A stretch of DNA of 64,000 nt, from the NCBI GenBank assembly GCA_003971905.1, contig RSEE01000015.1, forward strand, positions 620,001 to 684,000, in the 5' to 3' direction. Shown one piece after another: positions 1-58,576 of this stretch (position 1 is its first letter; each line of letters begins with the position of its first letter). The notes beneath the pieces were generated by a model. It was not told the origin of the DNA, ran no database searches, and worked only from the letters and a program-made list of their open reading frames with translations. A program made the translations under genes and the position numbers. Source of the stretch: Moniliella sp. 'wahieum'. Its lineage: Eukaryota.

Positions 1-664
1 ACCCTCTCTTGTCTCGTGCTTGGTGGCTCCACCACCGAACATCGGCCATCGGTAGCCGGTCGGCAGTACCTCGTAACGCGTAACGCGAGCAACGGCGGCA
101 CCCAGAGGGCAACTTATTGTGCCATCGACCATCCGCACCTCCACAGCCGCCCAGCCACAAAAGCTGAGCGTCTCAGAATCCAAAATCTCGTGACCGAACT
201 TTTCTGGTCCTGAGGGTTAGCAGGATCCAGACAGCATTCGTACATTCTTGGTGCCCTCAGTATACTCAGTACCCGGTACTGAGTACCGTCATTGCGTTAG
301 CGCCTCAGTATCCTCAGGCTCTAATAATCCAGTCGCTAGTCTCGGGGCGGCGCCTTCTCGGGCCAACCACTGGTGCCGATCGACATTACCATCAGAATAT
401 CGAATCCGATCACCCATTATCGATCAACTGTTCATCGATCATGCACCACATCAGATCGCACCCTGTCCTGCATTGCGAAGTGCAATGCTTCAACTAGCTT
501 GGGCCGATTTACTCCACTTGTGCTTCTCATCAAGTCCACTTGCGCCTTGATCGATGATCTTTGGTGGCCATCCCGCATGCTCACTACGACCAAGCCCTGG
601 CCTCTCGCACCAATGCTCAAACATCCTCTATGTGCATGTCCGGTAACAAGAAATATATCATCGT

Positions 665-2583
665 TTAGGACGAACGCGGGGGCGACGCTGGTTGCGGTGG
701 GACAGGTTCATCACGCTCATCCCTTGCGGGATGGAGGGAGGGAGCGACCGGGACGGGCGCCACGGCGGTACCTGTGGCCGAGGGAGCTGGGGAATCGAAC
801 CCATTAGATTCGGGATTTGGCTTGCTGTCGTTCGGAGGTGGCGAGATCTCGGGGCGAGCAGGGGCGGGGCCAACGCCAGGTTCAAGAACCAAGGGGGGCG
901 TGGCTGAGGGAGCGTCGTGGGGGGTTTGGGGCGTGGCGCCCTGCACCGGCTGCACCTGCGTATCCGTCTGGTGCAGCGCGGCAGGCGCCTCCGCCGCCCG
1001 AGTAGCCGTAAGGCCTGCAATCGCGGTTTGCAGGTGCCCCAACACGTACTGATGCTGGGGTGAACACGTTCCTTCGGGTTGTTCCCGTACAAACCGGAGC
1101 AGCGTGCACACGGCCAAGTCGGCATCATGCAGCGAGATGGGCCCCTGGGGAGGCGGAGTGGAACGCCAGGGTGGTACGTTAGCCCCGGGTGACATGTTGG
1201 GTCCTTGCCACAGGGGACTCGGGTCGTTCCAGGTAGGCGACTGGTGCTTGGCACCAGGCAGGAGCGGATGCGAGCCCGTTGGGCGCATGCTGCTCCAGGT
1301 TGCGTTCCGGTCTGCCTGCGACACACACCAGAGAAGGGTCCATGAGGCGGTTCCGTGCCCGAAAGTCGGAAAGCCACGCATCGGATGGTTCGAAAGGGAG
1401 GCCGGGGGAGCCACTGAGCACATGACTGCCTGACGCACTTGCCTCCCGTTCTGGTGGCTGGCTTGCCCGCAGGCTCATGTCAATCTCAGCGGCCTTGGCG
1501 CGGAGCATGTGGTTGTCCGGGAGCGGCGCTCCTTCCGATGCCAGCCGATGCACGTATGCCAGCAACTTGCTCTCCAGCTCGGGGCGGCGGATGGCGATCT
1601 TGAGCAAGGAAGGGCTCGTCGACCTTCATGGCCAAGTACCGGTCCTTGTGCTTCAGAATTTTGCTCACTGTACTCCGCTCCAACCGAAAGAGCGCAGCAA
1701 TGTCACCCTGTTTCATTCCCGGATTAGCCACCGCGTGCTGACAGATCCGTTGTCGATCCGTATCGTCGATCCAAGTCTTGGCGCGCTTTTTGCCCCGAGG
1801 CTTGTCAGTCTTGGACACTTGGCTCACGTCGGGACTCGATACGACCAGTTTGCTCATCGTCTCATCATACCCGTGCGGAGGGGTGGAAACGTTCGGGGGA
1901 GACTGGACATGGGCTGTGAGGTGCGGCGCACTCAAATCTAGGCCATAACCTGGGAGGGGCGCGTAGCTCGGCTGCGACGCGATTAGCATGGGGACACAGC
2001 GGGGAAAACCAAACGCGGGGGAAACCAAACAAACTACTTCATGGTCAGGTGAGGCGACGTTGGCTGGATGGGTAAGATGGGTGCCTGGGCCATCGGGAGC
2101 GAGCAGCGACGTGGGTGCAGCAATGCCCGCGTTTGGGTTTGCGACGCGTGCGAGTTCGTGCTCTGCCTCGAGCACCGATTCAGGCTTGGACTCTATACGA
2201 TGGCATGCCTCTTCTTGTGGCGCCGAGGGGGGTGGTGGGATAGGAAGGACCAGCGCTGGGGTGATGGATGTCGGTGCAGGGGCGGCGGGGGGTTCCGAAA
2301 CCGATACAGACGAGGCCCTAGGCTCTGGCACAGGCGAGGCGGGGGAGCGGGGGCGGTGGGGAGGGATGGTGTGCGGAGGGTGCCTCCGGTGGGGAGGCAG
2401 ACATGGGGGCGGGAGGGCGCTATGGTGGGCGGGAGTGCGTTGGGGCTGGGCACGCGCGACGGGTTGATGGTCGCGCTGAGGGGCCGCTGGGCTGCGGCCG
2501 TCGTCGCGTCGGGCGGCTGTGTGAAAAGAGCGCTGGGGTGTGGCCTGCTCCTTCGCTCGGCCGAGAGGATTTGGAAGCCACAT
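665..2583 (-). CDS. CENP-B/Tc5-like tandem HTH DNA-binding protein, no DDE domain seen (frameshifted)
   Basis: ORF 1486..2583 has a psq/CENP-B-N-like HTH (DRQRICQHAVANPGMKQGDIAALFRLERSTVSKILKHKD). ORF 1179..1607 continues with a CENP-B-type HTH (RPELESKLLAYV...LRAKAAEI...FEPSDAWLSDFRARN), followed by a P/S-rich tail in 665..1438. Start uncertain. Confidence 0.75.
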
Positions 2584-3091
2584 TGAAATCGGTGACTAGT
2601 GCCCGCGGGGACGCGTGACGCCTGACGTGTGACCGGTGACCACAGCACCATTGGATGGGGCTTTGTTCGTTTGAAACTAATCAGGTGGTTGGCTCTGGTA
2701 CTGGTGCTGTTTGTTTCCTCCCCTTCACAACGATTGCCTGGTGAAAAGGTATCACGACAGATTGTGGAGACACGATCGTACAGCTCTACGAGCTCTGTTA
2801 TTCTCAGTTCGATTCTGGGGGCAGTCACTTTTTTGGTGTCGTCGCATTGTGTTCGATTTTGACCGTCCCCCCTCTGCAAAGCCACCCCCCATGCAAAGCC
2901 ACCCCCTCCCCCTCTTCTCTCCATCACCACCCCATCTCAGTTCCATCTTCTGGCAGGGCACATAATGGGGGCATGCTACAGGGCGATGGAGTTGAATTCA
3001 TGTGATTGCGCCAAGAAGAGAGGGCTGTGAAGTGGCTGCGCACAGGGCAAAAAGGGGCGCAAGGAAACTGGAACACTGGCCGGCCAAAATC

Positions 3092-5363: not shown

Positions 5364-5784
5364 GGCGGTGGCGGCGGGAGGGACGGGTGGGATGGCGGTG
5401 TGGACGTACGAAAGGGGCTCAGGGGAGGCATGCAGGCGGGCGGGGCTGATTGAGTGAGGACTGATTAAGATTGGTGATTGCATGTTGAACCGAGTGTGGA
5501 GATAACCGGCGAGCCCTCTAAGATCTAACCGGTAACCCAGCTCTGCAACCGACTGGGGCACGTTGGCCGCCCCACGTGCGACGACGCTCCAATCGATGCG
5601 CTTCTCCGTCCTCTCGCCTTCTGTCCGCGCTCGTGGACGGGGGCACTCCTGCCTCAGGCCTGAGCCTCAGGCCTCACCTCGCCACCTATGCATGCTATGT
5701 CCAGACCAGCGACCGACGTGCCTTGCTTCCGCTCTCTCCAGCTCGGGAACAGGTTAAATAGAATGACGCACCCCCTCCCGCCGC

Positions 5785-8670: not shown

Positions 8671-9112
8671 GCGGCGTGGGGCAGCCAGGCAGCGTCCTGC
8701 GGTTCGGTCTGCCTGGGGCTGCCAGTAGCCTCGGCCTGCGCCTGGGATTGCGGTTGGTTGTCTGTCGCGGCCATCGCCAACCCAGTAATCACCGAAGCCA
8801 CCCATCCACTGTATCTGATACGCCCAGGCGTGACTGCCCCGCTGACGCAACCCTAGTGCTGCGTTACCACTCATGTCTGGCCCCTCTATGTGCTCCGCAT
8901 GCTTCATCTATGTTCGTTCTGTCTGCACACCTACCTGCCTTCGCTCGCTGCGGATCCCCTGTAGCCTGCCACTCAACACACACACACACCAGGCAGAGGG
9001 AAAGTGACTGTCTTTGGTTCTGGTTCTGCTGCCACGCGCCCACGTAGGGCGGATGACACCGAGCAGTGCACGCCCGGGCGGCGCTTCAAGCTTCAAGCTT
9101 CTCAAGCTGGAG

Positions 9113-11243: not shown

Positions 11244-12399
11244 GGTGGGGGGGGGGGCAGAGGCCGAGGCAGGCCGCCGAGAGCAGACGAAGCAGGCTGC
11301 TGGCAAGACTGCGGTGCGAGCGCAAGACAGCAGTGTCCCCTGCATGCGCAGCGCCCGCCTGGGCCAGCGGAGCACTGAGGCTGAGCTCAGCCTGCGCTGA
11401 GCTCGTGACCACGCACGCCAGCACGGCGCCCGTGTGACGTGGATGGCGGGCCGTGCACGCGGCGGAGACTGCAATTGAAATGCGGTTTAGATGTTTAACG
11501 TTTACCCCAGCCAGCGGAATCGAAGCAGGCTGAGCGGAATGAGCACTGGGGGCAGGCGGCACCGGCCTCCGCATCACCAGATGATTGAACTCTGAACTTT
11601 CTGAACGTTCAGCTTACGCGTTACGCTTGAATATTGTACCGCGGGCGCTGCGCCAGCACGCAGCGCGGTGGCACGCAGCACCGGCGCTGGTCAAGTTGGC
11701 GATGCAGATGGCGTGCCAGCGCCCCAGCCCAGCCCAGCTGGCACCTGCATCATGCATCATGCATCGCATCACATGTCACAGGCCCACCCGGCAGAGCACG
11801 GCTTCATGCAATCACCCTCGCCGTGACAGTCACCTCCTGCGGCAAGGTCTGTAGCTATAACATTTCACCTGCTGCACTGCCGTCTCGCCACTGTGATGCA
11901 TGCTGCACCATGTGACTAGTGACTAGGACCTACTCGGTACGCGCTAAGCTACAAGTCCTATTATGCTTAAGGCTCAGGCGCTCAGGCGCTCCGGCCTCCG
12001 GCGGAGACGTCACGCGTCACGTGTCACAGTCTCAGGCACCATGCATGAGATCATGAGACCGACGCTCAGGCAGAGCGCTCCGCTGATCTCAGCCTCAGGC
12101 TCAGCGCCTCAGCGCTGACTACGCTTACAGGCCAGCCGCCCCGTTCGGAGGCTCGAATTCAATGCGCTCAGGTACTCAGTACTAGTACTCTGTACTCCGT
12201 ACTCCGTCCTCGTAGTCCCTCCGGAGGACGATCGACGTTCGGCTCGCCTGGCCCAGTCCCCTTGGCTCCGCGTGGGCGCACCACTCTCCGCTCGGCCATC
12301 CCTGTGCTGCCCTGCCTCTCCTCACCCCCACCTCCACCTCCACCCCCCGCGCCGCTTTCTTTTCTCTCGCGCGCTGCGTCCAGCTCCGCCCGCTCCACC

Positions 12400-13561: not shown

Positions 13562-14359
13562 ATTTTATGGCTGTTGGTATGACTAGTGGCTCGTGTCCCT
13601 GGTCATGAATCATTCGGCATCTATCGAGCTCTCAGTTCCTCATGGACTCATTTGCACCTCGCACCCGTCTCTTGGACTTTTTCTTCTCTCTCGTCATTCT
13701 CTCCCTCCCCTCGTTCTGTTCTTCCCCCCGTTTTGTCTGTCTCCCTTTCCCCGGTTCACCTCTTTCATGGCTGTGCACCCATGTTGGACGTTAGTATGAT
13801 GGTTTGGGTGCCTCTGTATTTCTTCTTTTTCCCGTTCTCGGGCGCACACCGTCTCTCCTACGGCTTGCCAAAGTGTTTGCGACGCCAAATGGTACCTCAG
13901 ATCGCGCTTCATACACGAATCGAATGACCCCTGCCCAAAGTCCAGACGAGCCACCGATATACCGCCGGCACATGAACGTGGTGGTTGGATTGGCGTGGCT
14001 GTGTAGATCCTCGCTCATTAGTCTCGCCCTGCAATTCCTCAAGGAGCGTCGGTGGAGATCATCGCTTAACCACGTGAGCGAGTTTGTGATCAGCTGAGGC
14101 TGGCCCTCAGCCTGAGGTTACTGAGGCGAGCCAGTTGAACGGTTGAACGTTGAACTTGAGCGTTGAAATGTAAAATCAACCCACCGTCTTTGGATTAGCT
14201 AAGGGGCTAAGGAGCTCCTGGTTGGACACGACGGCCCGGCCGGTGACGCGCCGGCATGGCACTTGCTCGCCAGATCGGCCGAAGCGTCAAACGCTCGTTA
14301 CCCAACCGCGCGCCGCGCACCACTTGATCTCCTTGCTCCACGGCTTCTTGGTTTGTGTC

Positions 14360-15404: not shown

Positions 15405-18244
15405 ACTGCTGCTGCGAGCATCGGAGTGTATCGTGGGACCTCATGGTGACCTTTGAAGGAACTGATGGGAACTTTTATTGGCATCAATTCCCCAGTCCCC
15501 CTGTTGGGATGGTGGGACCCGTAGTCCCGTACGTAGGCCACAGTGCCTTAGGCCGTATCACATGTCACCCTTGGCCACTTATTTGCCCTCCGAAGCCTCC
15601 ACGTGCCTACTCCGACTTGGTCGAACCCTGTCTCTTCCAGGTATAGCAGAGACGGCTTAGATCTTAGATTTGAGCCTCAATATCCTCAATCACCATTATC
15701 GCGATGACATTACTCGGCATCTCCAGAGGTTCGCTACCCAAATCATTGAGTTGCTCCGGTCTGACGATATGGGGGCACTGCAATTCCTCGTGGCTGTCTA
15801 GGGCTTTTTCGTTGGTGTACCCAGCCTCTCATCTGTCGGAACCCACGCCGTTCTATTGCTCTCGCACTATCATTTCCCTAGCCTGAAGCTGATAAGATAT
15901 GCCCAGTTCTTGGCTGGCTGACGGCCTATCATACCCCCCCCCGAGAGTACCCGCTTGGGCGCCGGGTATGGGCGGGCCAAGAAGGAAGAGTGGTGAAGGC
16001 TTGATGCAGCAGGCCTTGTAGAGCTTGATCGCCATTCTCATGACTGGAGTGCTATTGACCAGTGAGTACTGAGTGTCCTGAGCCCTGAGACTGAGTACTC
16101 TCAGACCGAATACTGATGAGATGGAAGAGACCTGATACATGATACACTGATATCTGGAGAGCTTGTCTTCGAGTCAAGATAACCTCACCGACGAAGCGGT
16201 CTGCCTTCGGACCATTGCGACCTGGGTTGTGCCCGACAGGGGGTTAGGCGTTCAAAAATTTGATGGCACTAAGCTTGAAGAGGTTATCAACACATTTACA
16301 CATTAGAGAGTGGTGTGCTGTGGGCGCTTCAACTGTAAAAGGCCTAACGCCTAACGCATACCGTCTAACACAATAACCCCATCCCCCTGAGGAGCAGCGT
16401 TGAGATCTGTGAGAGAGCTGAGAGATCTGAGATCTGAGAGAGCTGGGGAAGACTAGTTGGTTGGGGGATGGGATGCATGACGGGTGAGGTTCGGCCAGGC
16501 TACTTGTACAATGCACTTTAGTTTGACAGGTTCAGCTCCACAAAACAAGTCATTAACTGAAGCTTATTCCAAAGACTGTGCCTGTGAAGCTTGAAGCTTG
16601 AAGCTTGAAGAACTTAAAGCTTTGTGGCATGTGAAGCTTCCTTGAAGCTTGAAGCTTGAGGAAAGGTTCGTGCGCTCATGAATTGCATGAATCTCGGAGG
16701 CTTAATTAAAGTCATTTAGAAAACGTTAAACCGAAGCATGGTGCAAAGAGAAGGATGTCACGTATGTCCTCCTGTAGTTCCCCTGAATCGTCGTTGATGA
16801 TTACGTCTCCTTGCAAAAGAGAGCTGAGACGCTCAGGCTCTAATCGATCTAAGATCTGGGGCGGTGGCGTAGATGGCATATCGATAACAGCCGCCGCGTA
16901 ATATCTCTGGGAAGATAAGGCGTGTGGAGATGAATAAGATTGATGAGATCTGTTGTGCCCTCTTCTCGGTGTATGTTTGGGGGGCCAGGATCGAAGCTGG
17001 CAGCAAAAGTAGAGAGTATGTGGTGTGAGCTGGGCTATTACAGTGAAGCTTGAAGATTGGTGTGAATGAGCTGGGCTCGTGGATGATGGAGAGGATGAGG
17101 CAACTGCTACGCAATACGTTCCAGCCATCCCCTTTCCTTTCACGCCGCCCGAGGACACCACACAGTGTTGAGAGTTGAGAGCTGAGAAAACGAATGAGCC
17201 TCATATCTGTGGAAGAGTGGCTATGATGTGGAAGCAATGGCAGAGGAAGCGCGCGTGATGGTGGCGGAGTGGTTTAAGTGTGACATGTGACGGTGACGAT
17301 AAGTGGCAGGTGATGCGTGACTGTGATGCAAAACGGTGAATGATTAATGACGGTGATTGGTGACACGCATGCCACGTAGCAGGGTGGCTTGCCACACGGC
17401 TGTTCGGGCGAGGCGAGTCACAAGCAACGCCGGGTGCCGGACGCCTGGAATGCGGCTTGGTGGATGCGCGTATGTTTGTCCAGGACATGCCTGTCGCGCC
17501 CCGGCCATCCCGAGACGCTGAGCGACTGCTGAGCCTCAGCGCGCTCAGGCTGAGCACTGACGCGTGACGCATGATGCGTTGACGTGTGACCGTGTGATTC
17601 ACACCCTCTCCCGGGATTATCAATCGCATCGATCATCGTCATCGATCCCCACAGTGGCTGAAGCGCTGACGATGATCTGATTGATGGTCCCAGGTCCCGG
17701 CCAAAGCAAAGGCCAAAAGGGCAGTGTGTCGATTGCCCTTCCCAGCGCGTGCGCAAGCAGGGGACCGGTGATGCACTGCCCCTCTGCTACACCCCCACGT
17801 CATCCTGTCTCACTCGCCGCGCTGCTGATGCGCGGACCAGTGCCCCCCGCAGCAGCAATATCAGCTGTCGGCTATATACCCCCCCCCGGGACCATAGGCA
17901 CCCCCGCCAACCCAGCATCTACACTGGCGCCGCGCCAGAATGTGCATTGGGTGTTGGGCTGCGCGTGATGGGTGGGTCATCGGCTGGTGTGCCTTGCTTG
18001 CTGCTTGCTGGGGCGCCCGTCATCGAGTCATCCATTCGCCATTCCATATTCAGATGCCGCATCCAGCGCTCCAGCGCTCAGCCGCTCAGCCGCTCAGCCG
18101 CTCAGCCTGCTTCAGCCTGGCTCCCAGTAGCTCCCCCGTCCTTCGTCCTTGCTCGCGGCCCATCCACACCCACTGGCGTCACGCACACGCCATATGCCAA
18201 GTCTCATTCGTGCCAATACCGCGCCACCCCGCACTCCCAACAGC

Positions 18245-18638: not shown

Positions 18639-21199
18639 AGGCCCTTGCCGGCACGGCCCTCCGCACCGTGCTTTGACCGTTCGACCCTCTCTCTCATCCC
18701 GTATTTCTTTTTCATGTACCGTTACCCAATACTCCAATCTCTGTATGCGTGGCGACCGAGGGGAATGCAAGGGACCATCCCGCCTCGCACGTGTGCATCA
18801 TATGCCCAGCCATATGCTATGGCCTTGTTCTTGTGCCTCTGATTATTGTTCACTTCTCATCACTGAATTGTACACGGCTACGCATTCTCGTGCTGTGTAC
18901 CGTTGATACTGAATGCTGCTCTCTTCTTTGTTGTGCAGGCCGTCTCCTTTCCTTGGGAGGATGCGCCTCAACACACCGTCACAGCCCGCCGCTTTCAGTT
19001 CGGCTTTCGGCACATTCCCGGCGCGAAGTTGAGTTGGCAACCCGCTCCCATCTTTTCTCGGACAGACATCTTCCCCCTGCCAGGAGGGAATCATCATGAT
19101 ATTGTTGTTGCTTTATCTCCCCGTTGATTTCGCGACAGTTGCAATAAGCCATAGGAGCGTTTTACAGATAGTGCGGCACATCATGACGACTGGGGCGTGT
19201 CCAGCAAAACCGCTTTGACTCCATTCCATACGAAAGCATCTTGCACGACGTATGGATCAGCGGTGCTGAGCAGAAATGATAACGGGGTAACGAGCCATAA
19301 GCACCAGTATAGGGAGGAACACCGTTGAACGTTGGATAGGGATGAGTCGGCGTTGACGTTTGCGGAGCTAAGCGAGTGTCCCCAATACACCACAGGTGAT
19401 TTTATTACCATATATGGCAGGGCCCATCAAAAGTGTGCAACCCTACTGCTCCCGACCTGCACGTGACGGGCAAGTATCGGGCATATGACAGAGTCGCGTC
19501 GACGCGTCCCTCCACCCACTTAAAATGCCCCTACCCGTACTCACCGCCGGTGTCCCCATTGCGGCACCAACGACCACACTGCTTCAAGGTGCCCCCTCAA
19601 TCCACGCCCACGGTTGTGCCCCCACTGCCGTCGACCTGGCCGCAAGGCTGCCGCGGAGCGTGGAGCAAGGAGGAGATGTGGAAAGCAATTGGGGTCTTTG
19701 CGACAAAATAAGGTGGGGGGGGAGAAGGACAAGAAGAGGGGGGGGAGGACAGAAGAGAGGGGGACAAAGGGAATTGGTGGAAGGATGGAGCAGGATGATC
19801 GATGGTTCAGAGGGGCGGGCTCGATCTCCACGTAACGTGAATTACGACGACCCTGTCGCAGGCGGGCCCTGCCAGGGGGCTCGCTCAGGTTGGTGGGGCA
19901 CAGTCCCTTAGGTGAAAGACGACTCACGGTAGTTTCGGGCTTGGGCTACTTGGTAGTTCCGAGCGAGGTGGAGAAACCTTTGGGCGTGAAGCCGAGGCGG
20001 CTGCGCGCGTGGCAAGGGTGCGTATACGCCGGCGGGAGGGTACCATCGTGTCTGAAGCCTCCGGGGCTGAGAGACGGGTAGATGCAGTGGAGCGGACAGA
20101 CACTGCCAGGGCTGCGGCATGGCAGTGGCTGTGAAAGGAACCCACGCGACATATTGTGGTACGGGGAACCGACGCGGCTGATGGAAGGCTCGCGCGACTG
20201 GGCAGATGGAAAGCTGGAGGATGGGTTGGATGAAGATGAAGATGATGCAGCTAAGTGGAGACGAGAGGTTGCCTGTATTACTGAATCAATTGGCTGGAAA
20301 CGTTCAGGAGTTGGGCAGGAAAGGCGGGAAGGGACGAGAAGGAAGGTGGGATAAAGGATCCCTACCAATCGAGATGCTGACTGTTGGTTGGCCCCTTGTT
20401 GGTAACCCACCGCACTGGGATAGATGTTGACAGAGCGAAACAGACGAAGCTGCTATAGAGTGCGACTTGGGAGTACTCGCGATCCTATGGATCAGCTGCA
20501 ATGCAGCCTTCAGACAAGCGTGAAGGCAAGTTCAAGCAACATCTGAATTGAAGGGAAGGAGACAGGAGAGAGAGAAGGGAGATGAAGAGAGGGCGCGCGC
20601 GCCCTGCGAGCGGAACTCTTCCGCCCGGTTAAGTGAGCGTCACCGATCCACCGAGGGCCGTGCAAGGGAACCCCAGCACTACCCTCCAACAGAAGCAAGC
20701 GAAGACTGCGAAGGCACTAAGAATGTCATCGATAGCACTTCCTCGTACTGGGATGTGGTCGCTGTAATGACGACCCTTCCCGAAGGAATGCTATAGGGAA
20801 CGCCCGGCCTTCCGTCCTCGTCAGTCGCATGACCTAATTCGACTTTTGCATAGGAAGTATCGCATCGTGTCGCGGCTGAGCGACCGTCGTGTCGAAAGTC
20901 ACATTGAGAGCCTACCCAAACCACGGAGCTCGCAGTGTAGTAGCACGTATAACGTGCGCACGTGACTCCTGCCCGAACGAAGCCGCTGGCAAGTTGTCGG
21001 GTGGTCAGTGATCGACCAGTGATCAGCCTGATTCAGATCAGTCGCTGGTCAAACTCTACATGCGGCCACTGCCGCAGTGTGACGCCTCCAGTCGTCCGAC
21101 TTGAAGCTTGACTAGCTTGACTACTTTCACACCTCCCTCGAGCCGACCGACATCCTACGCCCAGCAGCTCCAGCCCGAGCCAGTCTGTCCACCACGCAC

Positions 21200-35607: not shown

Positions 35608-36631
35608 ATTATGCGGCGCGGTGGGACCGGAGAGGGGGGGGGGCAGGAGCAAAGGCAGGAGGAGGCGGCGCGAGGCGGTGGCGGGGAGAGGAGGAGGATG
35701 GGCGTGGGTGGGATGGGAGGAATGGGGCTGGAACACAGCCTGCATGCATGCCATCCGGTGGGACAGTACTCCGCGGCGGGCGGCGGGAGACAGGGCGGCT
35801 GCCTGTATGTTCTTCTGCTAGTGCATGTCCCCCTCTTGTTAGCAGAGCGGACTGATGACTGAGCATTCATCAATAATGCTCTCCTATGGCAGGCGGGCAG
35901 GCGGGCAGGCAGAGCAACAGACGATCGAATGTCTCTGCCCTGCGCGCGCCCTGGCGTCTGCGGCTGCTGTTGGTGTTATATATGTCCTCGACGTCTCAGC
36001 CTTATCCGCCGCACCGCTCCGACAAGTATAATCGATCAGGACGATGGGGCCAGTGGATGCTACAGACACCGACGCACCCAACCCTACTCTCTCTCCCAGC
36101 ACGGCGCCAGTGCCGGTGTGGCCTCCCACCCACAGCGTGCCAGTGCTTATCCCACCCACAAAACACCAGTGCTATTGCGGCGCCTCCCACCCACAGAGGC
36201 TGCACAGCAGCAGCAGCAGTCTCCAGCCCCCTGACTAGTGACTGCCCCTGGCTGGGAGGCTGTCAATAGCAACATGCAGCGCGTGAGAGAAAGTGAAGCC
36301 AGGAGGTTATGGTGCCTGACGGCCTCACCTCCGATGCTAGAAGCTCAAGCTTCGCTTCAAGATCGAGGGGCTCAAGCCTAAGCGCTCGAGAAAGCTGGAG
36401 CTCTTGCCCGCGTACTACCTACCATGTACCTACACCACGGCTCCTTGGCCCACGCATGTTCGTGCACATCCCATCGCATTGGCTAGCATGCTCAACAGAC
36501 TCTACAGAGAAGCCCGAACTCCCTCCCCTCAGCCACACCTTCAGCCCGCCCGCCCAGGCCTGCCATCCCGCCTTGCGTCCCAGTATAGGCTTCCCACGCT
36601 CTAGAGCGCGCCCGAAGCGGCGTTGCACCCC

Positions 36632-38192: not shown

Positions 38193-39941
38193 CGTGGCAG
38201 AGACCGAAGCGGTGGTGGATCGGCAGCAAGCGCCAGCGGCGAACTGTGTGGAGCTACACGCGCCAGCGAAGCCCCCTGCTAGCCAGCCAGCCAGTCAGCG
38301 TGCCTCAGGCAGGCCAGAGCAACACGTGGCACCACACTGTCCCTGTGCCCATCCCCCTGCTGCCACCGCCCTGCGCGGGCGCATTCTGACGTAATATGGA
38401 ATTACCTAAGGCACCTCAATCACCGCTGTTTTTTTTTCTTCCTGCTGGCTCAACCCAGTTTTGCATCGGTCCATGCCACCACCACCACCACCGGTCTACG
38501 CTCACTCCTGCCAACGGGCTCCGACCTAGTCCTCAAGTACTCGCGAAGAAAGAATGCACATATGGAACCAACCATGTGTTCGCGCCAAACGAGAGTAATA
38601 CCCCCCATATCCTGCTAACTCTTGCCAGAGAAACAGAATTGTTCCGTTCTTGCTAGTGGGCACTTTCGAAGCTCGCCCTGAGCTTCTCGTCTTCCTCCTT
38701 CCTTCCTCGCGTTGGGAGTCGACGGAGGACGGTCGAGGCCATGACGGGTCGGGTCAAAAAGTCGCCAAAGCACGCCTTGGATGCGAAGAGGACAACAAAG
38801 GTCGTGAATTGGTGCTTCTGCCCCAAGCTTTTTCACATCACCCAATGTCCCCACATTCATTCAACACGCGTTTCTTCCTCATACATTCAATCCAATATTC
38901 GTTTATTGATATTTCCTGCAAGTAGTCAGTACTCTGCTTTTACCCTGGTGGGTACACCGCCCCGCATCACACTGCCAACCTGAGATCTGACATCTGATAC
39001 CGGCTTTAAGCTTGATGAGCTTAACGGGGGGAGAGACACACATTACATCCTTTCAAATAGACGACGGGGGCAAGGACTGAGCCTCAACGCTCCGGCTGAC
39101 CTTGCATCGATCTCAGGCTGAGATGGTTATGGTTACCGCAAGTTGCAATGAAGCTGGACGCCCAGGAGCATGAATAACATCAGCTCTGTCGGCTACCGTA
39201 TGATCGCACTCTTGCACACACAGCGATAGGCACAACGCTGCTCAACATCTGCAGACATCCGAGCTGTAAGGCCGAGTGCTGGGGCTGGCGTTGACAACAC
39301 GGCGTTCAAGCTTCAAGCGCACAGACGCTCGGGGTTATTCCAGCCCTACGAGGCCCTACTACTGGTTATGGACAGCTACCGCCACCCGAGACGGTGACAA
39401 CCACAATGAGCCCATCGGGCTCCACTGCCGGGCTGCTGCGTGTAGCAGCCGCATCTGCGGGAGCCCATGCGCCACTGTCACAGAGCCGCATCAGCGCATC
39501 GGCGCATCTGAGCCCGCCTGCATCCGCGGAGAGAGAGCAGGCGCATGCAGTCCCGCGCATCGATGTTGCGCTAGGGTTGCCCGCACTTGCCCACTGTCAC
39601 CTCAAGCCTCAGGCTGCAAGCACCACGCATCACATGTCACACCTCACGCGTCAACACTTCCACCCGCGCGCTGACGGCGACCCCATCTGAGGCCAATCGT
39701 GTCTGGCTGAGAGGATGGATGATCTGCACAGTTGTGCTTGGCGGCAGACGGTCTTTTTACTGGCGCCGCTTCGCTAGCCTTTGTTTCCTGGCACCACCAA
39801 CCCCAACCACTTCGTATACGACCTGGCCAGGCTCGGACGCTTCTCCGCACCCTGTTCCTTCCTGACCCGCCCGCGCCCCCCTTTTTTACCGCCCTGGTTG
39901 GTCGCCCCATAGCGCTACCCCCCCTGAGCATCGACGCTGCG

Positions 39942-41041: not shown

Positions 41042-42233
41042 TGGCCAGTTCCTCTGCTTCTCTGCGAGGGCTGTGGGTTATGCATCATGCATTCCACTCA
41101 CTCTGATTGGGGGCCTGGCAAGAAGCAAGATACCACTTGCACTGACTCCCAATGCATGTTCTGTGCACGTTCTTCCGCTCTCTGCTTGTTTCGTTGGCAT
41201 TCTCTTCCCATGATCATGACATGAATCTCAGCTACGCCGGGTTCCATTAGAAGTGCCTTATTTTGCTCAGCTCCCCCAGGCCAGTAGCCTTTCCCTTTGG
41301 GCATGTGGTAGTTGGTACGCTACGACAAAGGGAAAGATGTGGATCTGGTGGATTCAAGCAGAGCAACTCTGGATCAGGGCGAGGCCTTCATGCTACAGTC
41401 CCGAACCTATGCATGGGGTTGAAAAAATGCACAGGCACGTTCGAACATGTCTCTCTTCAGCAGGGAAGAAGAAGAAGCTTGAATGGAGGGCATAGATGGC
41501 ACAGAGTTGAATGTACAGAGAGGATGAGTCAGTGCAGGCTTTAGGTTGTGAATGACGCTTTGGGAAGTAGTTGAGGAGAGTCCAACGACGATGAAGAGTT
41601 AGTTGGCAGATTGGTCGACCCAAGTCTCGGCTGTGGCTCTTTTATTAGTTGGGTTTATGCGGGCTAAGGGAACAACTGTGGAGAACGAACAGCCCACATA
41701 CACCAAGCTCAAAGCTACTACCAACGCGCTTTGGTAAAGCGTCCCAAGTCCTCTTTACGCTATACTCACGAAACAAGGCGTCCCCGCTGTTTTTTTTTCT
41801 CGAAAAGCGGATCCCTTTGCTCGGCCTTTGCTACCTTATCCTCAAGTTCATCATGCCTGTCGACCTGGACCATTGAATGCAGGACATCTATAATGTTTGG
41901 TCACATTGTCTTGGTTGGCGTGCCACTGCTTTGTCTGGACTTGGTGACCGGCGCGTGCCCTAAATCAAGAACCAAGCTACCCTCAGTGTGGCGGCGGGAA
42001 CCACCGTGTCTGGTCAACATTCGCAATGCGTCCGACGCAAAGCGCCAAACGTCTTTACACGGCCTGGTTGAAGGGAAATATACATCATCAACTCGTTCAA
42101 TGTTTCGACGATACACTATGGAAGTAGCGCGTTGGTTTACCTCGGCATGCCTAGTGTTTGTCAAACTGCCTAGTCCTCACTACACAAGCAGAGGCAGAAG
42201 GATTAGTATGTAGTTCCGAAACAAGGCAACCCT

Positions 42234-51400: not shown

Positions 51401-54400
51401 AGTCTAGGCCTGAAGGATGATGAGATGCCTCACGATGAGCCGTATGATGGAGTGTCTACGGGCACTTCTGTGGTTAGCCATCTTTCATCATTGGGGATGG
51501 AAACGAAAAGGAGAGTTCACATACGATGCAGGGATGCGGGGTTCGCAGCGGCGCCGAAAGGGAGAAGGCGCATCAAAAAAGAGCCCGCGCAGAGGCGGCA
51601 GTCGAGGACGAGCCACGGACTGCGGGGGAAGGGCGGTACCAAGGGAGGGGTGCATGGAGGTGATGGTTGTGGGAAAGTTGCTCTGAGATACGCTTTCGTG
51701 GCAGCGGCATATGATCTCACACGAGGGGAAGGTCGGTACCTGCAGCGGGAGTACACAAGAAGAGGGGGACAGGGACGCGTGAAGCTGGTGAAGAAGCCTC
51801 GTGACGACCGAATGAACCGAGGGCGAGGTGGTGGTGGAGTGTCTGCCGTGTGTGGTGGAGGACGGGGGCGAAGAGCGTTTGCCGTTGTGGTTGTCGTGGC
51901 AGCTGGCAACCATGGGACAGCATGCGGGCACGTACTGGGCAACCTCTTCTCCGTGGCTGAGCTCAAGCGATTGGCTTCACTTGGAGCACTCAGTCTGCGT
52001 ACACAGTCGCACCAGGACCCACCCGGCGCTGAGACGCAAGTGCGCTGGCTGCTCCACTCTCCCAGTCTCCCGCACGCGGTCGCAATTATCAGTGTGGGGA
52101 GCCCTGGTCGGCCAGATTTGAGTGCACGCACGGGGGCAGCTTGCGTTGCAATCTACTCCTCGGCCTTAGGGCCTCAGGCCTCAGGTACAGTGGCAACCGA
52201 GCAGCAAGCCACAGGAGGCCGTCGCAGGGCACAGTCCCTGGACGCATGGCTCTTTTCCAGCCCTGCATCATTAAACTATGCATCATACATCATCGATCAT
52301 CGTCGCCCAACACTGCCCCCACAGCGGTGCGGATCTGAGATGCGAAGAACGCCCCGGGCGGGACTCTGGCAGTCACTAGTCACTAGTCACTCGTCAGATA
52401 TCACATGTGACTAGGACTAGTGACTAGCGGCTAGTGACTGTCGTAAGCCGTGCACATGCACCCTCCTCGGGCACGGGACAACGTGGTATCGGCAAGCACT
52501 AGAGCACTGCCGCCGATGCATGATGCATGGGCAAACCCATATCGATTAGCGAGTTGTTACGAGTGCATCATGCGCCATGCATGATGTTTGAAGGCTGTCT
52601 GTCTGCCCCAGTGGATGCGCACTGCCATGTGTGGGCGTATCAAGCATGCGGCTGTTTTAAATGATTCACGATTGCCCGCGGGACGGTACCAGCTGCTATA
52701 GGCTGCTACCTGCTGCTACGGCAGCGTGAACTCCACACACTCGTGCCATGCGCGGCAGATACCGTGTGGTTTTTTTTGCGCAGAACACGGCAGTGGGGCC
52801 GGACGCCTGAGCTTTCGGTACGTTTTTGCTATTCACACTCCTGCAAACAAGAGCTACTCGACTCGCGGAATCGAGTCGAGAACAATGCTCTCTTGTCCCA
52901 TCTCCCACAGTGGGGACGTACCACACAGCTTCTTCACCGTGGCCATAATTGGGTCTGCCACAAAGTTGACCTCCTCTGTTGTTGTGAAGCGAGACTTCAT
53001 GTCGAATCGGAGGCAACAGGTGTGTAGGCATTTTATCGTCTCGTTCATCTCGCTCTCACGAACATCATATAGGAAGGTGCGAGGGAGAGGCCGATGTGCA
53101 CGCCGGCCCGGACGAAGGGTAAATCCGCCTGAGCACCATACTCCCATGCCTTTCTTCCGCTTCAACGCCTATTCGATCTGGGGTAATGCATGCCGCTAAT
53201 GGGGAAGGTAATGTGCAGCCTCTCCATATAATAGCGGATGGGAGTTCTCCTGTTCCACACGCTTGCGTTTACTCCCGTTGTCGATTCGCGCCATCTTTTC
53301 CTCTCAAATCCGACCGTAAACTCGATCGAGTCGTCCTACAGAGACATTGGGTCTTTCTCCCTTCAAATGATGAGGTGGGCAGATGCGAACTGCAAGAATC
53401 AGACCTGCATCTTCCTCGTGACCTCCCGACGATCTGGCTGTGTCCTCGTCATTGACGATGATGACACCAACGAGCACGCCGATCCCCGCGACAAGCAACT
53501 CGTTCTCTGGCACCCGGGCGGCGCCTCAGCCTGACGGGCCCAAAAAGAGGCTCACCGCCACACCGCCATCGTCGCCGTGGCACAGGCATTCCAACAGCAG
53601 GTGACCTTCTCCAACACTCTCCTCCACTCCTTGTTCCACTTCCTTCTGCAAATTTACCGTTTGCCCGCCGGCGCTTTGATGGGCACCAATGCCTCCGTCA
53701 CCACGCGGGCCCAGCCAGCTGAGACCGATACGTTTTGCGCCGTTGAGACTCAGCTTGTGGATGTATGTTAAGTATTCCCCTCCGTTCTGTTTGATCTTTG
53801 CCGATAAACGACGCCGATGCTCTTCTCCCCTATCTTCACAGAAGGTCCGCACTCAAGTGACTGTCAGGGCCACCTTACTTCCTCCCCAAATGGTCGGCAC
53901 TGAGGTCGTCCGCGCTACCTCACCCCCTTCTTCTTCTCCCAAATGAGACCGACACCGGGTCGGTCGAATCCCCCTCACGCCCTCGTACCGCAGGAGTTCC
54001 CACCCCCCTGCCACCCCCAACATGCACAACCGGTGGTCCACTGGGACCCCGCAATTGGGTTTGGACCGTCCCAAAAAAACCCGTGTGGGCGCGCCTCCCA
54101 GCGGGCACCCAGGCTGAAAAACAGAAGATGGACACGCCATCTGGCACGGCGAAGGGGGGTTAATGGCTTTACACTGTTGGCGCCTCTCTTCCCACTTTTC
54201 TTAAATACTGATCGTACTTTTGCACGGACTTGTCCTTGCTCTTCGTGATAACTTCACAGGTACCTTGACTCTGTCTCCCTTGTCGCCGACGAAGGAGCGA
54301 TAACCTCCGATCTCTATCGTTTCTGACCGGGTTCAATGTTCCCAGAGTTGGCTGTCTGCGCTTATAAGAACCATGAATGTGGGGTTTCCGGTCAGCTATA

Positions 54401-55430
54401 CGCATAGCTTTGACATCGCATGTTGACCATCTCCGATCAGAAGGGGTAATCCTGTGGGGTTCGACGTACTGTGGCGGATTGTTGGGAGCGCATCAGGTAG
54501 GGATGGGGATATAGGCGGAAGTTATGCGTACAGTGAGCTCGTCTCACTTACTTGGCTACGCGGCACTACAACTGGTGTCCCATCAGACAGCGGCGGAGAT
54601 GACACTCGCACACTGGCAATTGTGTCCAAGAAAAAAGTGCATCCACCACGGATGTGTGCCACAGGATGTCTCGCGCGTTTGGCGCCCCAGTCTCTTCAAT
54701 CGATCCTCGGGCCTAGCAGTTCCTCTGTTTTTTCGCTTCTGCCTTTTAGTATCGGTTCCACAGCCAGGCCCCGTGGCGACTTGCTTATCCCCACAGGGGG
54801 AGGTGGTGGTGGGCAAAAGTGAGCACAATGAATGATACAAGCGAGCCAGTCTCCAGCTGGGGCACGGATCCGACTCCATTAGATGAGGGGCACAACTGGA
54901 TCAACTTGGGTGCTCCAAAAACCGAAATGCATGTTGAAGTGGCCAATGCTGGAGATCGATGACCTCCAAGGCCGCCATCGAGCGTCACGCGTCACGCGTC
55001 ATCGATTTCGAGGCGCTGGGAAGCCGAAAACGTGTCGCACCCTGTGGCAGCGGCGACTTTTTTTGGTCCTCCAGGGCCGAAAAGTGCCCCGAGGGGCAAG
55101 CGGAATGCGGTGAGCGATGGATGATGCTGGGTACTGCTACGACCGACAAGCGATAATCAGTTCCATGGCGTGCTGCACAGGACACTGGCGCTGTGCTGCA
55201 CTATATAAGCAGCGGCTGCCGGAGAAGCCCTCCCGCCGCGCACGTGTACCCGCATGGCGCCAGTGTCATCTGCGATTTTGCCTATCCCCCGCACGGCGCC
55301 AGCAGTGCCCTTTGTCCGCCGCTTTTCCGCGTCTTCTCGGGCTTGCGAATGGAGTAGACCAGGCTATATAAGCTTGGCCCCACGTGGCTGTCCTGCTCCT
55401 TCCACCAACCATTCTTCCCGCGTCTGCAGC

Positions 55431-57820
55431 ATGGTGTACGTCTCGCTCCTTCCCTACCCTCTCCCTTACATCATTGCAAGCTCCTGAACTCATGGACTGA
55501 CCTCCCTCGCAATGTCCCAGCACTTCTACTGTTCTCGGTTTCCCCCGCATTGGCCCGCAGCGCGAGGTCAAGAAGGCTCTCGAGGCCTTCTGGAGTGGCA
55601 AGACAAACGTCGAGGAGTTGCTCCAGGTTGCCAAGCAGCAGCGCCTCCTGACCTACGAGATCATCAAGAACCAGGGCGTGGACTTGATCCCCACGGGTAC
55701 CTTCTCGCTTTACGACCACGTCCTTGACAACTCGCTCGTCTTCAACGTGATCCCCGAGGCGTACGCCAAGTCGGGTCTCAACTCGCTCGACACCTACTTT
55801 GCGCTGGCCCGTGGCCACCAAAAGGATGGTGTTGATCTTCCGGCCACCGAGATGCGCAAGTGGTTTGACAGCAACTACCACTACCTCGTGCCTGAGTTCA
55901 CTCCTTCAACCGACTTCAAGTTGAACGATCTCAAGCCGGTTAACGACTTTGTTGAGGCGAAGGAGGCTGGGTACAATGCCCATCCCGTTCTTCTTGGCCC
56001 CATCACTTTCCTTTACCTCGGCAAGGCCGGCAAGGGTGCCTCGGAAGATTTCAAGCCCCTCAGCCTTCTCCCTAAGCTGGTCCCTGTTTACGCCGAGCTT
56101 CTCCAGAAGCTTGGCGCGGCTGGCGCTTCTTCGGTTCAGATTGACGAGCCTGTGCTCGTCACTGACGATGCTGCTGCCCTCGCCGACGAGTTCAAGCAGG
56201 TGTACACTGCGCTCAACAAGGCTGCGCCCAACGTCGCCCTGACGCTCACCACCTACTTCGGCGCCTCGACTCCAACATCAGCTTTGTCAAGGACCTCCCC
56301 ATTGCTGGTCTCCACATTGACCTCGACCGCGACGCGCTCCCCAGCAGCTCGAGCCCATCGTTGAGGCTGTCGCCCCTACCAAGATTGCTCTCTCGCTTGG
56401 TCTTGTTTCGGGCCGTAACATCTGGAAGACCGATCTGGCCGCTGCGCTCGAGAAGGCCAAGTATGCTGTGGAGAAGCTTGGCGCTGACCGTGTCGCCGTC
56501 GCCAGCTCATCGTCGCTCCTGCACACTCCCATTACCATTGCCAACGAGAAGAAGCTCTCTCCTGAGGTGCTGGACGTTCTCTTTCGCCACTGAGAAGGCT
56601 GCTGAGGTTGCTACCCTTGCACAGGCTCTCGCCAACCCCAAGGAAGCCGAGGCTGCGTTGGCCAAGAATGCCACCTCGATCAAGGCTCGTCGTGACTACG
56701 AGAAGAACTCGGACCCTGCTGTGCGCGAGCGTCTGGCCGCCATTAAGCCCTCTGATTTGGAGCGCAAGTCGCCTTCACTACCCGTGCTGCGTTGCAGAAG
56801 AAGCATCTCAACCTCCCCTCTTCCCCACCACCACCATCGGCTCTTTCCCCCAGACCAAGGAGATTCGCCAGGTGCGTGCCAAGTTCAACAAGGGCGAGGT
56901 GAGCCAGGAGCAATACGACCAGTTCCTTGAGAACGAGATCAAGGATGTGGTCGAGCGCCAGGAGAAGCTTGGCCTTGACGTGCTGGTCCACGGTGAGCTG
57001 AGCGTAACGACATGGTTCAGTACTTTGGGGAGCTGCTTGACGGCTTTGCCTTCACGCAGAATGGCTGGGTGCAGAGCTTCGGTTCGCGCTACGTTCGTCC
57101 GCCCATTGTTGTGGGCGATGTGTCGCGCCCCAAGGCCATGACGGTCCGCTGGTCGGTCTTTGCCCAGAGCGTGACCAAGAAGACGATGAAGGGTATGCTT
57201 ACCGGCCCCGTTACCATCCTCAACTGGTCTTTCCCTCGTGCCGATGTGGGCAAGGATGTGCAAGCGCTGCAAATTGCGCTCGCCCTGCGTGACGAGGTGG
57301 CCGACCTGCAAAAGGCGGGCATCAAGGCCATCCAGGTCGACGAGCCTGCCATCCGTGAGGGTCTCCCACTCCGCCATGCCGACTGGCAGGCCTACCTCCG
57401 CTGGGCAGTTGACTCGTTCAAGCTGGCAACGGCTGTGGCTGACGACGATGTCAACACTGCGTCGCACTTCTGCTACTCGGACTTTGCCAACCCGGCGGTG
57501 ATGCAGGCGATGATTGACCTGGACGCCGACATGCTCTCGATTGAGAACGCAAGGCTGGTGCCAAGTACCTTAACGTTGGAAGTCGATCCACTACCCCAAC
57601 GAGATTGGCCCTGGCGTGTTTGACATCCAACGCCTCGTGTCCCGACCAAAGGAGGGATTGCTGCAGCGAATCAAGGAAAACGCTCTTTTCCTGTCGCCTG
57701 AGCAGCTCTGGGTCAACCCCGACTGTGGGCTCAAGACGCGTACTTGGCCGAGTGCGAGGCGCACTGGCCAACATGGTCACGGTGCCAAGGAGGCTCGTGC
57801 TCTGTTCGCAACAAGAATAA
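55431..57820 (+). CDS. MET6: Cobalamin-independent methionine synthase
   Basis: ATG GT / intron 55436..55520 / gives [69 protein letters not shown]-like boxes at ~55202 and ~55365. Confidence 0.97.
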
Positions 57821-58576
57821 ACGTTCTGTTTGGCTTACCCTTCTCATTCTTCCTCCCTCCCTCTCCCTCTCACATGCATGATATTATGAGGCTACTTCAA
57901 CACAGTGGCCGAACTTGGGACTTGCTCAACGCATGGCCCCACGTGCCCTATTCCTCTCACATTGGCACTCACTTCCCCTTCCCCCATGTACTTCGCATCC
58001 CGCTTTTGTTACGTTTTCAACATCTGTACTCTGGCTCGTTCAACAACGCACTGTCGTGAAAATATCCACATCTCCACCATCGGTCTTGCTGGGTAACTAA
58101 TACCGTAGATGGACTTCAAAGCCTGAAGAGCATTATAGGCGATGGGTGTGGGTACTGTCGACAATCATTATACCTGCAACTAGTAGCCACACCCGATGTG
58201 TGGGAGGGCGGAGGTTTTCAGCGACACGGAATGGCTGAAGCTTGAAGCCTGACGGTGCGACACGTTGTGACACGTGAGGAGGGCTTGGGCCTCAGGCTCA
58301 GCAGGGCTATACTACCACCTGGCTTTGTTAGCTTCCACGCTCGCGCTCATCCTCGCTTCTTGCATCATGCATCAGTATCTCACCGTATCAAGACCGGCTA
58401 TTAGCGGCAGTGGCCGGTGTGCGGAGATTTGATGTGAATCAAAGACCCGCCTCCCCGCACCGCGCACCTCGCTGCGGTTCGCCCGGATGGACGCGGGGGC
58501 ACTCGGGTGCGGGCCAATTATTTTCTCCAACCCGATCCACACCTCCACCATCTCCCCCCCGCTTTCCCTCGTCGCC

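Follow-up and report, generated by a model that had tools for sequence, protein, structure and literature searches.

Palindromic TNA heptamer tracts between the genes of a Moniliella contig: grammar, flank templating and a possible origin in break repair

The window and its heptamer tracts

Short tandem tracts with a period of 7 base pairs (bp) are repeatedly found between the genes of a 64,000-base stretch of Moniliella sp. 'wahieum' (contig RSEE01000015.1, positions 620,001 to 684,000), called here the window. Each unit is composed of the trinucleotide TNA, in which N is any base, and a self-complementary tetranucleotide, the core, so that a unit can be written, for instance, as TGA+AGCT. 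A preliminary description had noticed these sites by eye as TGA-N4-TGA, or TCA-N4-TCA, with a palindromic N4. The pattern is real, dense and specific. All statistics for the window rest on 64 kilobases (kb) of one contig, plus unrelated metagenome contigs.

The G+C content of the window is 59%. The Pfam search covered 281 of its open reading frames (ORFs), 148 of at least 140 amino acids (aa) and 133 of 75 to 139 aa from gene-poor parts, and the matches are ordinary fungal housekeeping genes: alkaline phosphatase, an actin-binding Abp1-like protein, phosphofructokinase, a bZIP factor, Dbf4, eIF3c, an ENTH protein, a fatty-acid hydroxylase, a CCT subunit, EMC1, methionine synthase, pyruvate kinase and PQ-loop proteins. 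The best matches of the N-terminal part of the methionine synthase are from Ustilaginomycotina (Pseudozyma flocculosa, Tilletiaria anomala, Malassezia, Violaceomyces and Tilletia), with only 64-72% identity. Judging from this protein, the host belongs to the basidiomycetes related to the smuts, and the database searched contains no annotated genome close to it.

Every perfect tandem tract in the window was listed without imposing the pattern of the preliminary description. There are 153 period-7 tracts with at least five repeated bases (57 expected), and in 49 of them the unit is a perfect odd palindrome, against 5.1 expected. The centre of this palindrome is T-N-A in 44 of the 49 (TGA 20, TCA 17, TAA 4, TTA 3). 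The tracts are the following, with lengths in nucleotides (nt); the phase called direct is TNAxy-y'x'-TNAxy, where y'x' is the reverse complement of xy, and compound arrays are those with two different cores.

72..87: TAA+CGCG, period-7 tract, 16 nt
548..559: TGA+TCGA, 12 nt, direct phase
2610..2621: TGA+CGCG, 12 nt, opening a degenerate TGA array that reaches 2641
2629..2641: TGA+CCGG, 13 nt
5517..5537: compound TC-TAA-GATC-TAA-CCGG-TAA-CC, each core matched by its own outer flank
5664..5676: TCA+GGCC, 13 nt
9083..9101: TCA+AGCT, 19 nt, behind a gene
11493..11504: TTA+ACGT, 12 nt, mirror phase
11614..11626: TTA+CGCG, 13 nt
11746..11765: TCA+TGCA, 20 nt
11769..11780: TCA+CATG, 12 nt
11912..11926: TGA+CTAG, 15 nt
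12008..12021: TCA+CGCG, 14 nt
12172..12183: TCA+GTAC, 12 nt, phase off the model
14142..14155: TGA+ACGT, 14 nt
15656..15669: TTA+GATC, 14 nt
16063..16074: TGA+GTAC, 12 nt
16422..16439: TGA+GATC, 18 nt
16585..16610: TGA+AGCT, 26 nt (12+14), 3.7 units, the longest array
16641..16659: TGA+AGCT, 19 nt
16846..16857: TAA+GATC, 12 nt, phase off the model
17044..17055: TGA+AGCT, 12 nt
17279..17291: TGA+CATG, 13 nt
17339..17350: TGA+TTAA, 12 nt, mirror phase
17558..17570: TGA+CGCG, 13 nt
17627..17638: TCA+TCGA, 12 nt, phase off the model
19323..19334: TGA+ACGT, 12 nt, phase off the model
21100..21111: TGA+AGCT, 12 nt, mirror phase
23167..23179: TGA+AGCT, 13 nt, upstream of phosphofructokinase
33728..33746: compound GA-TGA-TCGA-TCA-TGCA-TCA-TG, centre base of the first copy flipped; its part at 33734 lies behind a gene
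36232..36243: TGA+CTAG, 12 nt
39305..39318: TCA+AGCT, 14 nt
39630..39641: TCA+CATG, 12 nt
41080..41092: TCA+TGCA, 13 nt, behind a gene
52170..52185: TCA+GGCC, 16 nt
52289..52302: TCA+TCGA, 14 nt
52371..52391: TCA+CTAG, 21 nt, left arm of an imperfect inverted repeat with 52415-52427
52415..52427: TGA+CTAG, 13 nt, partner arm of 52371..52391
52515..52529: TGA+TGCA, 15 nt
54982..55001: TCA+CGCG, 20 nt, upstream of methionine synthase
58236..58248: TGA+AGCT, 13 nt
58361..58374: TCA+TGCA, 14 nt
61715..61727: TCA+AGCT, 13 nt

The sites had been described as lying outside genes, and none of the 44 tracts of at least 12 nt overlaps the genic mask, which was made by hand and covers 35,429 of the 64,000 bases. 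Three of them touch an ORF with a Pfam hit, at an N-terminal stop-to-stop extension of the alkaline phosphatase ORF (5517-5676). The 44 tracts form 22 clusters, and avoidance of the mask by 22 independent clusters has a probability of about 2e-8. These clusters are situated in divergent promoters, before single genes, behind genes and in the stretch from 13.6 to 23.2 kb that is devoid of Pfam matches. With about 28.6 kb of non-genic DNA, the density is about one tract per 0.65 kb.

Palindromic excess, tract grammar and flank templating

In the window TGA-N4-TGA is present 53 times, with a palindromic N4 in 21 cases, and TCA-N4-TCA 38 times, with a palindromic N4 in 18, so that N4 is self-complementary in 39 of 91 sites. 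Chance expectations were obtained from 100 simulated sequences per Markov order and amount to 1.71 palindromic sites for order 1 (maximum 5), 1.71 for order 3 (maximum 6) and 3.46 for order 5 (maximum 9). The excess over composition (39 against 1.7-3.5) is therefore more pronounced than first reported. All sites of the preliminary description are present in the window at the coordinates given, and there are nine others (11769, 15558, 17044, 36232, 39630, 39644, 52174, 52290 and 61434).

When all trinucleotides are counted in the form XXX-N4-XXX, only TCA/TGA (39/91), TAA/TTA (6/9) and, weakly, ATG/CAT (10/53) exceed expectation among the 32 pairs, the palindromic fraction of the remaining pairs being near 1/16. 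The constant part had been given as TGA or TCA; this is correct for both trinucleotides but too narrow as a limit, since TAA/TTA sites are also in excess and the rule is TNA with any N. The middle base roughly tracks the background, with a ratio of TGA plus TCA to TAA plus TTA of 37:7 in the tracts versus 942:366 among non-genic TNA sites. Direct pairs are prevalent (TGA..TGA 21, TCA..TCA 18) over inverted ones (TGA..TCA 5, TCA..TGA 3), about two being expected for each.

The excess is confined to one spacer length. Palindromic TNA-spacer-TNA sites are 45 of 100 for a spacer of 4 nt (6.25 expected), 4 of 26 for 2 nt (6.5 expected), 3 of 66 for 6 nt (1.0 expected), 0 of 44 for 8 nt and 0 of 51 for 10 nt, and even palindromes in general are not enriched in the window. 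It is also confined to one centre and one period. TNA-centred tracts of at least 12 nt number 44, against expectations of 0.8 (Markov order 3) or 1.8 (order 5), and the control centres ANT, CNG and GNC, with 0, 3 and 2 tracts versus about 0.7, 1.7 and 1.7 expected, remain at chance level. For periods 5 to 12, tracts with TNA and a palindrome number 2, 10, 44, 3, 3, 0, 0 and 2 (expected 2.0, 2.0, 0.8, 0.7, 0.5, 0.2, 0.0 and 0.1); at period 6 TNA is not singled out, because ANT, CNG and GNC tracts also number about 2 to 3 times their expectation there.

Tract lengths have their mode at 12 nt (16 tracts), declining through 13 (11), 14 (6) and 15 (2) to 16 nt (2), with one tract of 18 nt and secondary groups at 19-21 nt (five tracts: 19 nt, 2; 20 nt, 2; 21 nt, 1) and at 26 nt (1). 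Lengths thus roughly follow 12+7k, plus chance extension. As had been reported, 12 of the 16 possible palindromic tetramers serve as cores, here in tracts of at least 12 nt.

The cores are related to the sequences next to them. The TNA-palindrome-TNA sites were grouped into 39 runs, and the dinucleotides located 2 nt further out were used as control. The flanking dinucleotide equals the adjacent half-core in 34 of the 39 runs versus 5 of 39 in the control (Fisher p 2.5e-11). The match is on the right alone in 17 runs (the two bases after the last TNA repeat the first half of the last core), on the left alone in 8 (the two bases before the first TNA repeat the second half of the first core), on both sides in 9 and on neither in 5. 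The palindromic core is therefore copied from the flank, in the manner of P-nucleotides: the added bases are the reverse complement of the flank end and contiguous with it. Grammar, statistics and templating are all direct observations.

As a consequence of this relation the smallest unit is not the 10 nt of TNA-N4-TNA, as first described, but 12 nt: two direct copies of the 5-nt sequence TNAxy, separated by its final dinucleotide in reverse complement (y'x'), or the mirror form. Among the 16 tracts of 12 nt, 7 are in the phase TNAxy-y'x'-TNAxy and 4 in the mirror phase, that is 11 of 16 against an expected 2/7 (p 0.001). The 88 tract ends are likewise non-random (chi-square 26.7, p 1.6e-4): 26 fall at the core centre, 19 just outside TNA, and the other five positions have 4 to 12 each. 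In a template-free scan for any five bases (W5), the reverse complement of their last two and the same five again, 88 matches were obtained, 53 of them with W starting with TNA, and five control forms gave 41 to 61 matches.

Arrays with two different palindromic cores are three in all data. In the compound array at 5519 (TC-TAA-GATC-TAA-CCGG-TAA-CC), GATC corresponds to the left flank TC and CCGG to the right flank CC, as though a single site TC-TAA-CC had received a scar on either side. The array at 33728 (GA-TGA-TCGA-TCA-TGCA-TCA-TG) has like flank relations, the centre base of its first copy being complemented. The third (CT-TGA-AGCT-TGA-ATAT-TGA-AT) belongs to a metagenome contig (L081). 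In all three, each core matches its own outer flank, and by their sequence the three would fit one original nnTNAnn site scarred on each side.

Tracts of this kind might instead be functional DNA, such as binding sites of dimeric proteins or structural promoter elements, whose symmetry is kept by selection. They are found only between genes, and some divergent promoters (11.5-12.2 kb, 39.0-39.7 kb and 61.7 kb) contain clusters of them. However, the 12 cores have no consensus beyond TNA, TGA and TCA tracts are about equally common (20 versus 17) with mixed orientations, arrays are also situated behind genes (9083, 33734, 41080), many copies are decaying, and selection on binding sites leaves unexplained why a half-core should copy its neighbouring flank. 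We hold this explanation to be very improbable. The earlier view that the pattern reflects mutation or repair, as opposed to an ordinary transcription factor motif, is supported. The shape-reading factor that had been offered as another possibility is not supported, the arrays having neither a fixed core nor an orientation.

Several side observations concern neighbouring arrays. Period-8 arrays rich in CTCAG/GCTCAGC are present at 11972-12003, 12092-12115, 18075-18117 and 39487-39508, with the units GCTCAGGC x4, GCCTCAGC x3, CGCTCAGC x5 and CGCATCAG x2.8; the third, CGCTCAGC, is TCA plus the 5-nt odd palindrome GCCGC. These arrays may be one-base-longer kin of the heptamer tracts. Around CACATGTG, at 52371-52440, TCA+CTAG units give way to TGA+CTAG units, and together they make up an inverted repeat, imperfect and about 70 nt long; a smaller case of inverted units is found at 52564-52586. 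The arrangement of the former suggests that units may be duplicated in inverted as well as in direct orientation.

Metagenome arrays, slippage and assembly errors

Public metagenome contigs were scanned for (TGA-WGCW)x3-TGA, which gave at least 121 loci, and 705 kb were fetched. Among the matches listed, palindromic cores (AGCT, TGCA) stand at roughly 72 to 50 in a tally made by eye, which does not go beyond the 2:1 given by the design of the search. With the selected family left out, the other units with a palindrome in the 705 kb number 31 for TNA, 25 for ANT, 32 for CNG and 34 for GNC; there is no general TNA excess in this metagenome DNA, and the statistic is therefore not inflated in ordinary DNA. 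The density of TNA-palindrome tracts in the window is about 16 times that of the metagenome set. Among the matches listed there is neither a long contig with a density like that of the window nor any locus homologous to it.

Some of these contigs are nevertheless of interest. Several different TNA-palindrome units coexist on the short contigs L091, L058, L018 and L121, and in L049 and L064 a second unit is found in the predicted phase. Similar events may occur in other organisms, as L049, L064, L081 and L091 hint. In L018:421-770, L058:8-60 and L121:128-267 a 6-bp palindrome (ATGCAT or AAGCTT) is constant and the seventh base varies from one unit to the next. At L036:5975-6030, (AGCTTGA)x4 is directly followed by TGAACGTT x2, with period 8 (AACGTT plus TG); the same array is at L065:5747-5802, and these two contigs, from different samples, are 99% identical, array sequence and copy number being identical. 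Tandem heptamers are also known from bacteria, for instance the cyanobacterial STRR sequences and the Xanthomonas GGGAATC repeats, which are intergenic and have a 7-nt period. Unlike the present tracts, these repeats are long, occur in prokaryotes, follow no TNA rule and consist of units that are not palindromic. Among the listed metagenome loci, some contigs of bacterial origin may belong to this STRR-like class.

It can be asked whether the tracts are heptanucleotide microsatellites, in which fold-back units escape repair and expand by replication slippage. Several facts would agree with this: arrays reach 3.7 units (16585-16610), tracts of 16-21 nt have mixed phases, 9 of the 39 runs extend on both sides, metagenome arrays of at least 24 nt show a weak phase preference, namely for ending at the core centre, and the arrays of L018 and L058 retain the 6-bp palindrome with a variable centre base. 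However, slippage needs a pre-existing repeat, and TNAxy-y'x'-TNAxy is not derivable from TNAxy. It would predict random phases, as opposed to the distribution of 12-nt tracts and tract ends given above, and neither a limit to period 7 nor one to TNA, yet only TNA-palindrome units are in excess. Units with CNG or GNC centres fold better and show no excess, and palindromic cores are not favoured among the listed metagenome loci beyond the search design. Any unit, random end phases and a smooth distribution of lengths would be expected from slippage, and what is found is a mode at 12 nt with groups at 19-21 and 26 nt. As origin of the tracts slippage is distinctly unlikely, although longer arrays may still slip.

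The quality of the assembly has also to be considered. Methionine synthase (55501-58059), phosphofructokinase (23267-26274) and pyruvate kinase (60171-61500) are each spread over overlapping ORFs in different frames. Pfam profile positions are continuous across the frame changes, from 61 to 60 near 57000 in methionine synthase and from 114 to 115 near 25415 in phosphofructokinase, where no room is left for an intron; the assembly therefore probably contains single-base insertion or deletion (indel) errors, pseudogenes being a less likely alternative. Such errors lend some colour to the idea that the tracts are an assembly or sequencing artefact. Random indels, however, cannot make sequence-specific and flank-templated 7-bp insertions that avoid genes and use 12 cores, and like arrays are found in independent metagenome assemblies, so that an artefact is barely credible.

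Proposed origin and other features of the window

The reading that we put first, with a confidence a little short of an even chance, is that breaks at nnTNAnn with a stagger of 7 bp left the tracts as scars, after the flank ends had been sealed into hairpins and these nicked 2 nt from the tip. A cut-and-paste transposon with 7-bp target duplications would be the likeliest agent. Three parts of this reading are inferred: the length of the stagger, the passage through hairpins and, most of all, the agent. A site ab-TNA-xy would be cut with a 7-bp stagger and duplicated, as on insertion of a cut-and-paste transposon. On departure of the element each flank end would be sealed as a hairpin, and nicking of the hairpins by the host 2 nt from the tip would leave duplex ends at TNA with a 4-nt self-complementary 3' overhang (xyy'x' or b'a'ab). 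A nick 3 nt from the tip would give the identical sequence, as T pairs with A, and one 4 nt from the tip would complement the centre base; the few inverted pairs and the array at 33728 would be explained in this way. If one overhang were kept and the other trimmed, joining would yield ab-TNA-xyy'x'-TNA-xy, or the mirror ab-TNA-b'a'ab-TNA-xy, with a net gain of 7 bp. The new TNA, being inside a perfect odd palindrome, would be a target that can be hit again, so that arrays would grow by 7; longer ones would later be blurred by ordinary slippage and point mutation.

This scheme would explain the period, the 12-nt minimum and its phase, and the steps of 7. Under it, N is identical in both copies (39 direct versus 8 inverted pairs) because the target is duplicated, any core is possible because xy is arbitrary, and scars would persist only between genes because a gain of 7 bp breaks the reading frame. 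The idea of hairpin opening with P-nucleotides, already put forward in the preliminary description, is the best fit to the flank matches. Its companion, iterated fold-back synthesis, would flip the centre base and is at odds with the predominance of direct pairs. Hairpin stability alone does not select TNA: under a nearest-neighbour model the weakest folding is that of TNA units (mean -3.8 kcal/mol, versus -6.2 for CNG and -6.7 for GNC).

Other geometries were rejected on the tract-end phases, odd-centred hAT hairpins among them. A 3-bp TNA duplication with two bases per element end predicts 10-nt tracts and a fixed core. A 4-bp palindromic duplication with a TNA remnant predicts ends at the outer edge of the core, where only 9 of 88 are found. 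Simple 7-bp duplication predicts tracts of at least 14 nt. Duplication of the five bases TNAxy with two P-nucleotides predicts an equal number of TNAxy-N'A-TNAxy, of which three were seen by eye (16133, 17565 and 27573) versus 44.

It is typical of hairpins in V(D)J recombination to be opened 2 nt from the tip, which produces a 4-nt overhang, and the 4-nt self-complementary overhang proposed here would follow the same rule. In hAT, Transib, MULE and RAG reactions flank ends form hairpins that are opened by host enzymes, the joints carrying footprints (PMC5499845); footprints with P-nucleotides in a fungus are described in PMC5873905, together with the opening of hairpins by Pso2, a relative of Artemis. 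The tracts share with the footprints described in these two papers a palindromic insert templated from the flank end and would, on the proposed reading, also have a target duplication left on both sides of it. The duplication would here be of 7 bp and centred on TNA, as opposed to 8 bp for hAT, 5 bp for Transib and 8-9 bp for Muta1. Five of the seven presumed target bases (TNAxy) are duplicated within the period of 7 and the outer two are replaced, so that the 7-bp length is itself deduced. In kind, the tracts would be repair scars of the transposon P-nucleotide type, with a geometry not previously reported.

Other families share single traits with the tracts. The target of PIF/Harbinger elements (Tourist, mPing) is TNA with any middle base, TCA and TGA included, as described in PMC4561436. 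In the window TNA is repeated with the same N (39 direct versus 8 inverted pairs), and in 34 of the 39 runs the repeated stretch has a length of 5 nt or more. The 4-nt filler copies the flank, whereas such elements would be expected to leave either a filler from the element ends or, in the model of PMC4561436, a precise excision. Target duplications of 7 bp are reported in PMC12730594 for two groups of Basidiomycota, hAT7 (Pucciniales) and Kyakuja (Agaricomycotina), which resemble the present case in phylum and in the proposed duplication length and differ in subphylum; as a member of hAT, hAT7 should leave odd-centred palindromes, unlike the even cores found here.

In Tc1/mariner footprints, the TA target is duplicated around a few element-end bases, a filler that is constant in each family and unrelated to the flank. 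A duplicated target around a short palindromic filler is the likeness to our tracts; the difference is in the filler, which here has 12 cores and matches the flank.

A number of observations weigh against a transposon scar. In the 64-kb window there is no element flanked by 7-bp nnTNAnn duplications; among 1,184 pairs of TNA-centred 7-mers 40-8,000 bp apart, one has inverted ends matching in at least 10 of 14 positions, and it is an artefact of the GCTCAGC arrays. No long inverted or direct repeats bracket the arrays in the window, and no transposase domain was detected in the ORFs searched, except a Tc5-type helix-turn-helix (HTH) at 1182-1625. We know of no transposon family that combines a 7-bp nnTNAnn target with even-centred flank hairpins. 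The joints vary surprisingly little: plain duplications of nnTNAnn, 14 nt in length, are absent from the tract list, as inspected by eye, and joints keeping both overhangs (TNA-pal4-pal4-TNA) number 0 in the window. The density of tracts is very high for footprints, the cores GCGC, TATA, AATT and ATAT (4.3, 1.8, 2.1 and 1.9 expected) are missing from tracts of at least 12 nt, the longer tracts have mixed phases, and matches on both sides, in 9 runs, exceed what one event at a random target would leave. The latter two suggest a preference for palindromic targets, slippage at a later time, or mutational truncation. The metagenome gives no independent support for the phase rule, with 6 of 17 12-mers in phase, which is not significant, and the shifts of the centre base along the arrays of L018 (G/A/T) and L058 (T then C) are not predicted by target copying. 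Strict hAT chemistry, which had also been mentioned at first, centres the palindrome on the complement of a single base and is varied in outcome (PMC5873905), which is not the case in these near-uniform tracts with even 4-mers, where 45 of 100 TNA-N4-TNA are even palindromes and the templated half is of 2 nt. PIF/Harbinger elements, as described in PMC4561436, make 3-bp duplications and excise precisely through duplication-derived overhangs, and cannot yield a 7-bp period or a flank-templated filler.

The same repair geometry, a 7-bp stagger at nnTNAnn with hairpin or fold-back filling and a palindrome of 4 nt, might be initiated by a host or domesticated nuclease or by a replication-linked process, with no mobile element involved. 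The whole grammar would fit this equally well, and the window lacks both element and transposase. Uniform outcome and very high density would also suit a dedicated or recurrent process better than transposon footprints, which are varied: 128 Ds excisions produced 28 different footprints (PMC5873905). However, a 7-bp duplication can arise only if the two staggered ends are filled in ahead of the joining, a specificity for TNA is characteristic of transposases of the IS5/PIF lineage (for PIF, PMC4561436), and the nuclease is without a candidate gene. This origin is rather unlikely in our opinion. To our knowledge, no nuclease fills both staggered ends and seals hairpins, which also counts against it.

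No published description of TNA-palindrome heptamer arrays was found in the literature. It is a doubtful but possible extension that such dense scars (about one per 0.65 kb of non-genic DNA) constitute an undescribed genome-wide mutational signature, left by a transposon or nuclease with a 7-bp stagger at nnTNAnn and even flank hairpins, with thousands of copies in the genome, promoter arrays that build themselves, and an occurrence not limited to this fungus. If the break-repair origin is true, this fungus would preserve, densely and in readable form, the traces of one class of DNA breaks and of their repair, from which the cut geometry and target of an enzyme not yet seen, and the opening of hairpin ends in this lineage, could be read. 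The reshaping of promoters would become measurable, as steps of +7 bp, palindromes that resemble restriction sites, and seeded short tandem repeats, and TNAxy-y'x'-TNAxy would be a simple computable signature for other genomes. Should the agent not be a transposon, the pattern would point to a new site-specific pathway of break and repair.

The Tc5 transposase HTH domain (E 7.5e-06) mentioned above is in the ORF 1182-1625 (minus strand), which adjoins a proline-rich ORF, 1489-2595 (minus strand), with a CENP-B-like N-terminus. Together they may be a domesticated or decayed pogo-type gene, with no evident tie to the heptamers. The region 13600-23250, about 10 kb with no Pfam match in ORFs of at least 75 aa, contains 15 of the 44 heptamer tracts. 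In this gene-poor stretch a direct repeat of about 217 nt with 100% identity is present (21221-21437 and 22372-22589, copies 1151-1152 nt apart), which could be a recent tandem duplication, ends like those of a long terminal repeat element or an assembly duplication. Finally, stretches with 70-77% identity flank pyruvate kinase (58634-58779 versus 61810-61955, and 59356-59425 versus 62531-62600). A PQ-loop domain match (62068-62502) is inside the second of the paired stretches (61810-62600), and 58634-59425 and 61810-62600 look like two paralogous PQ-loop genes.

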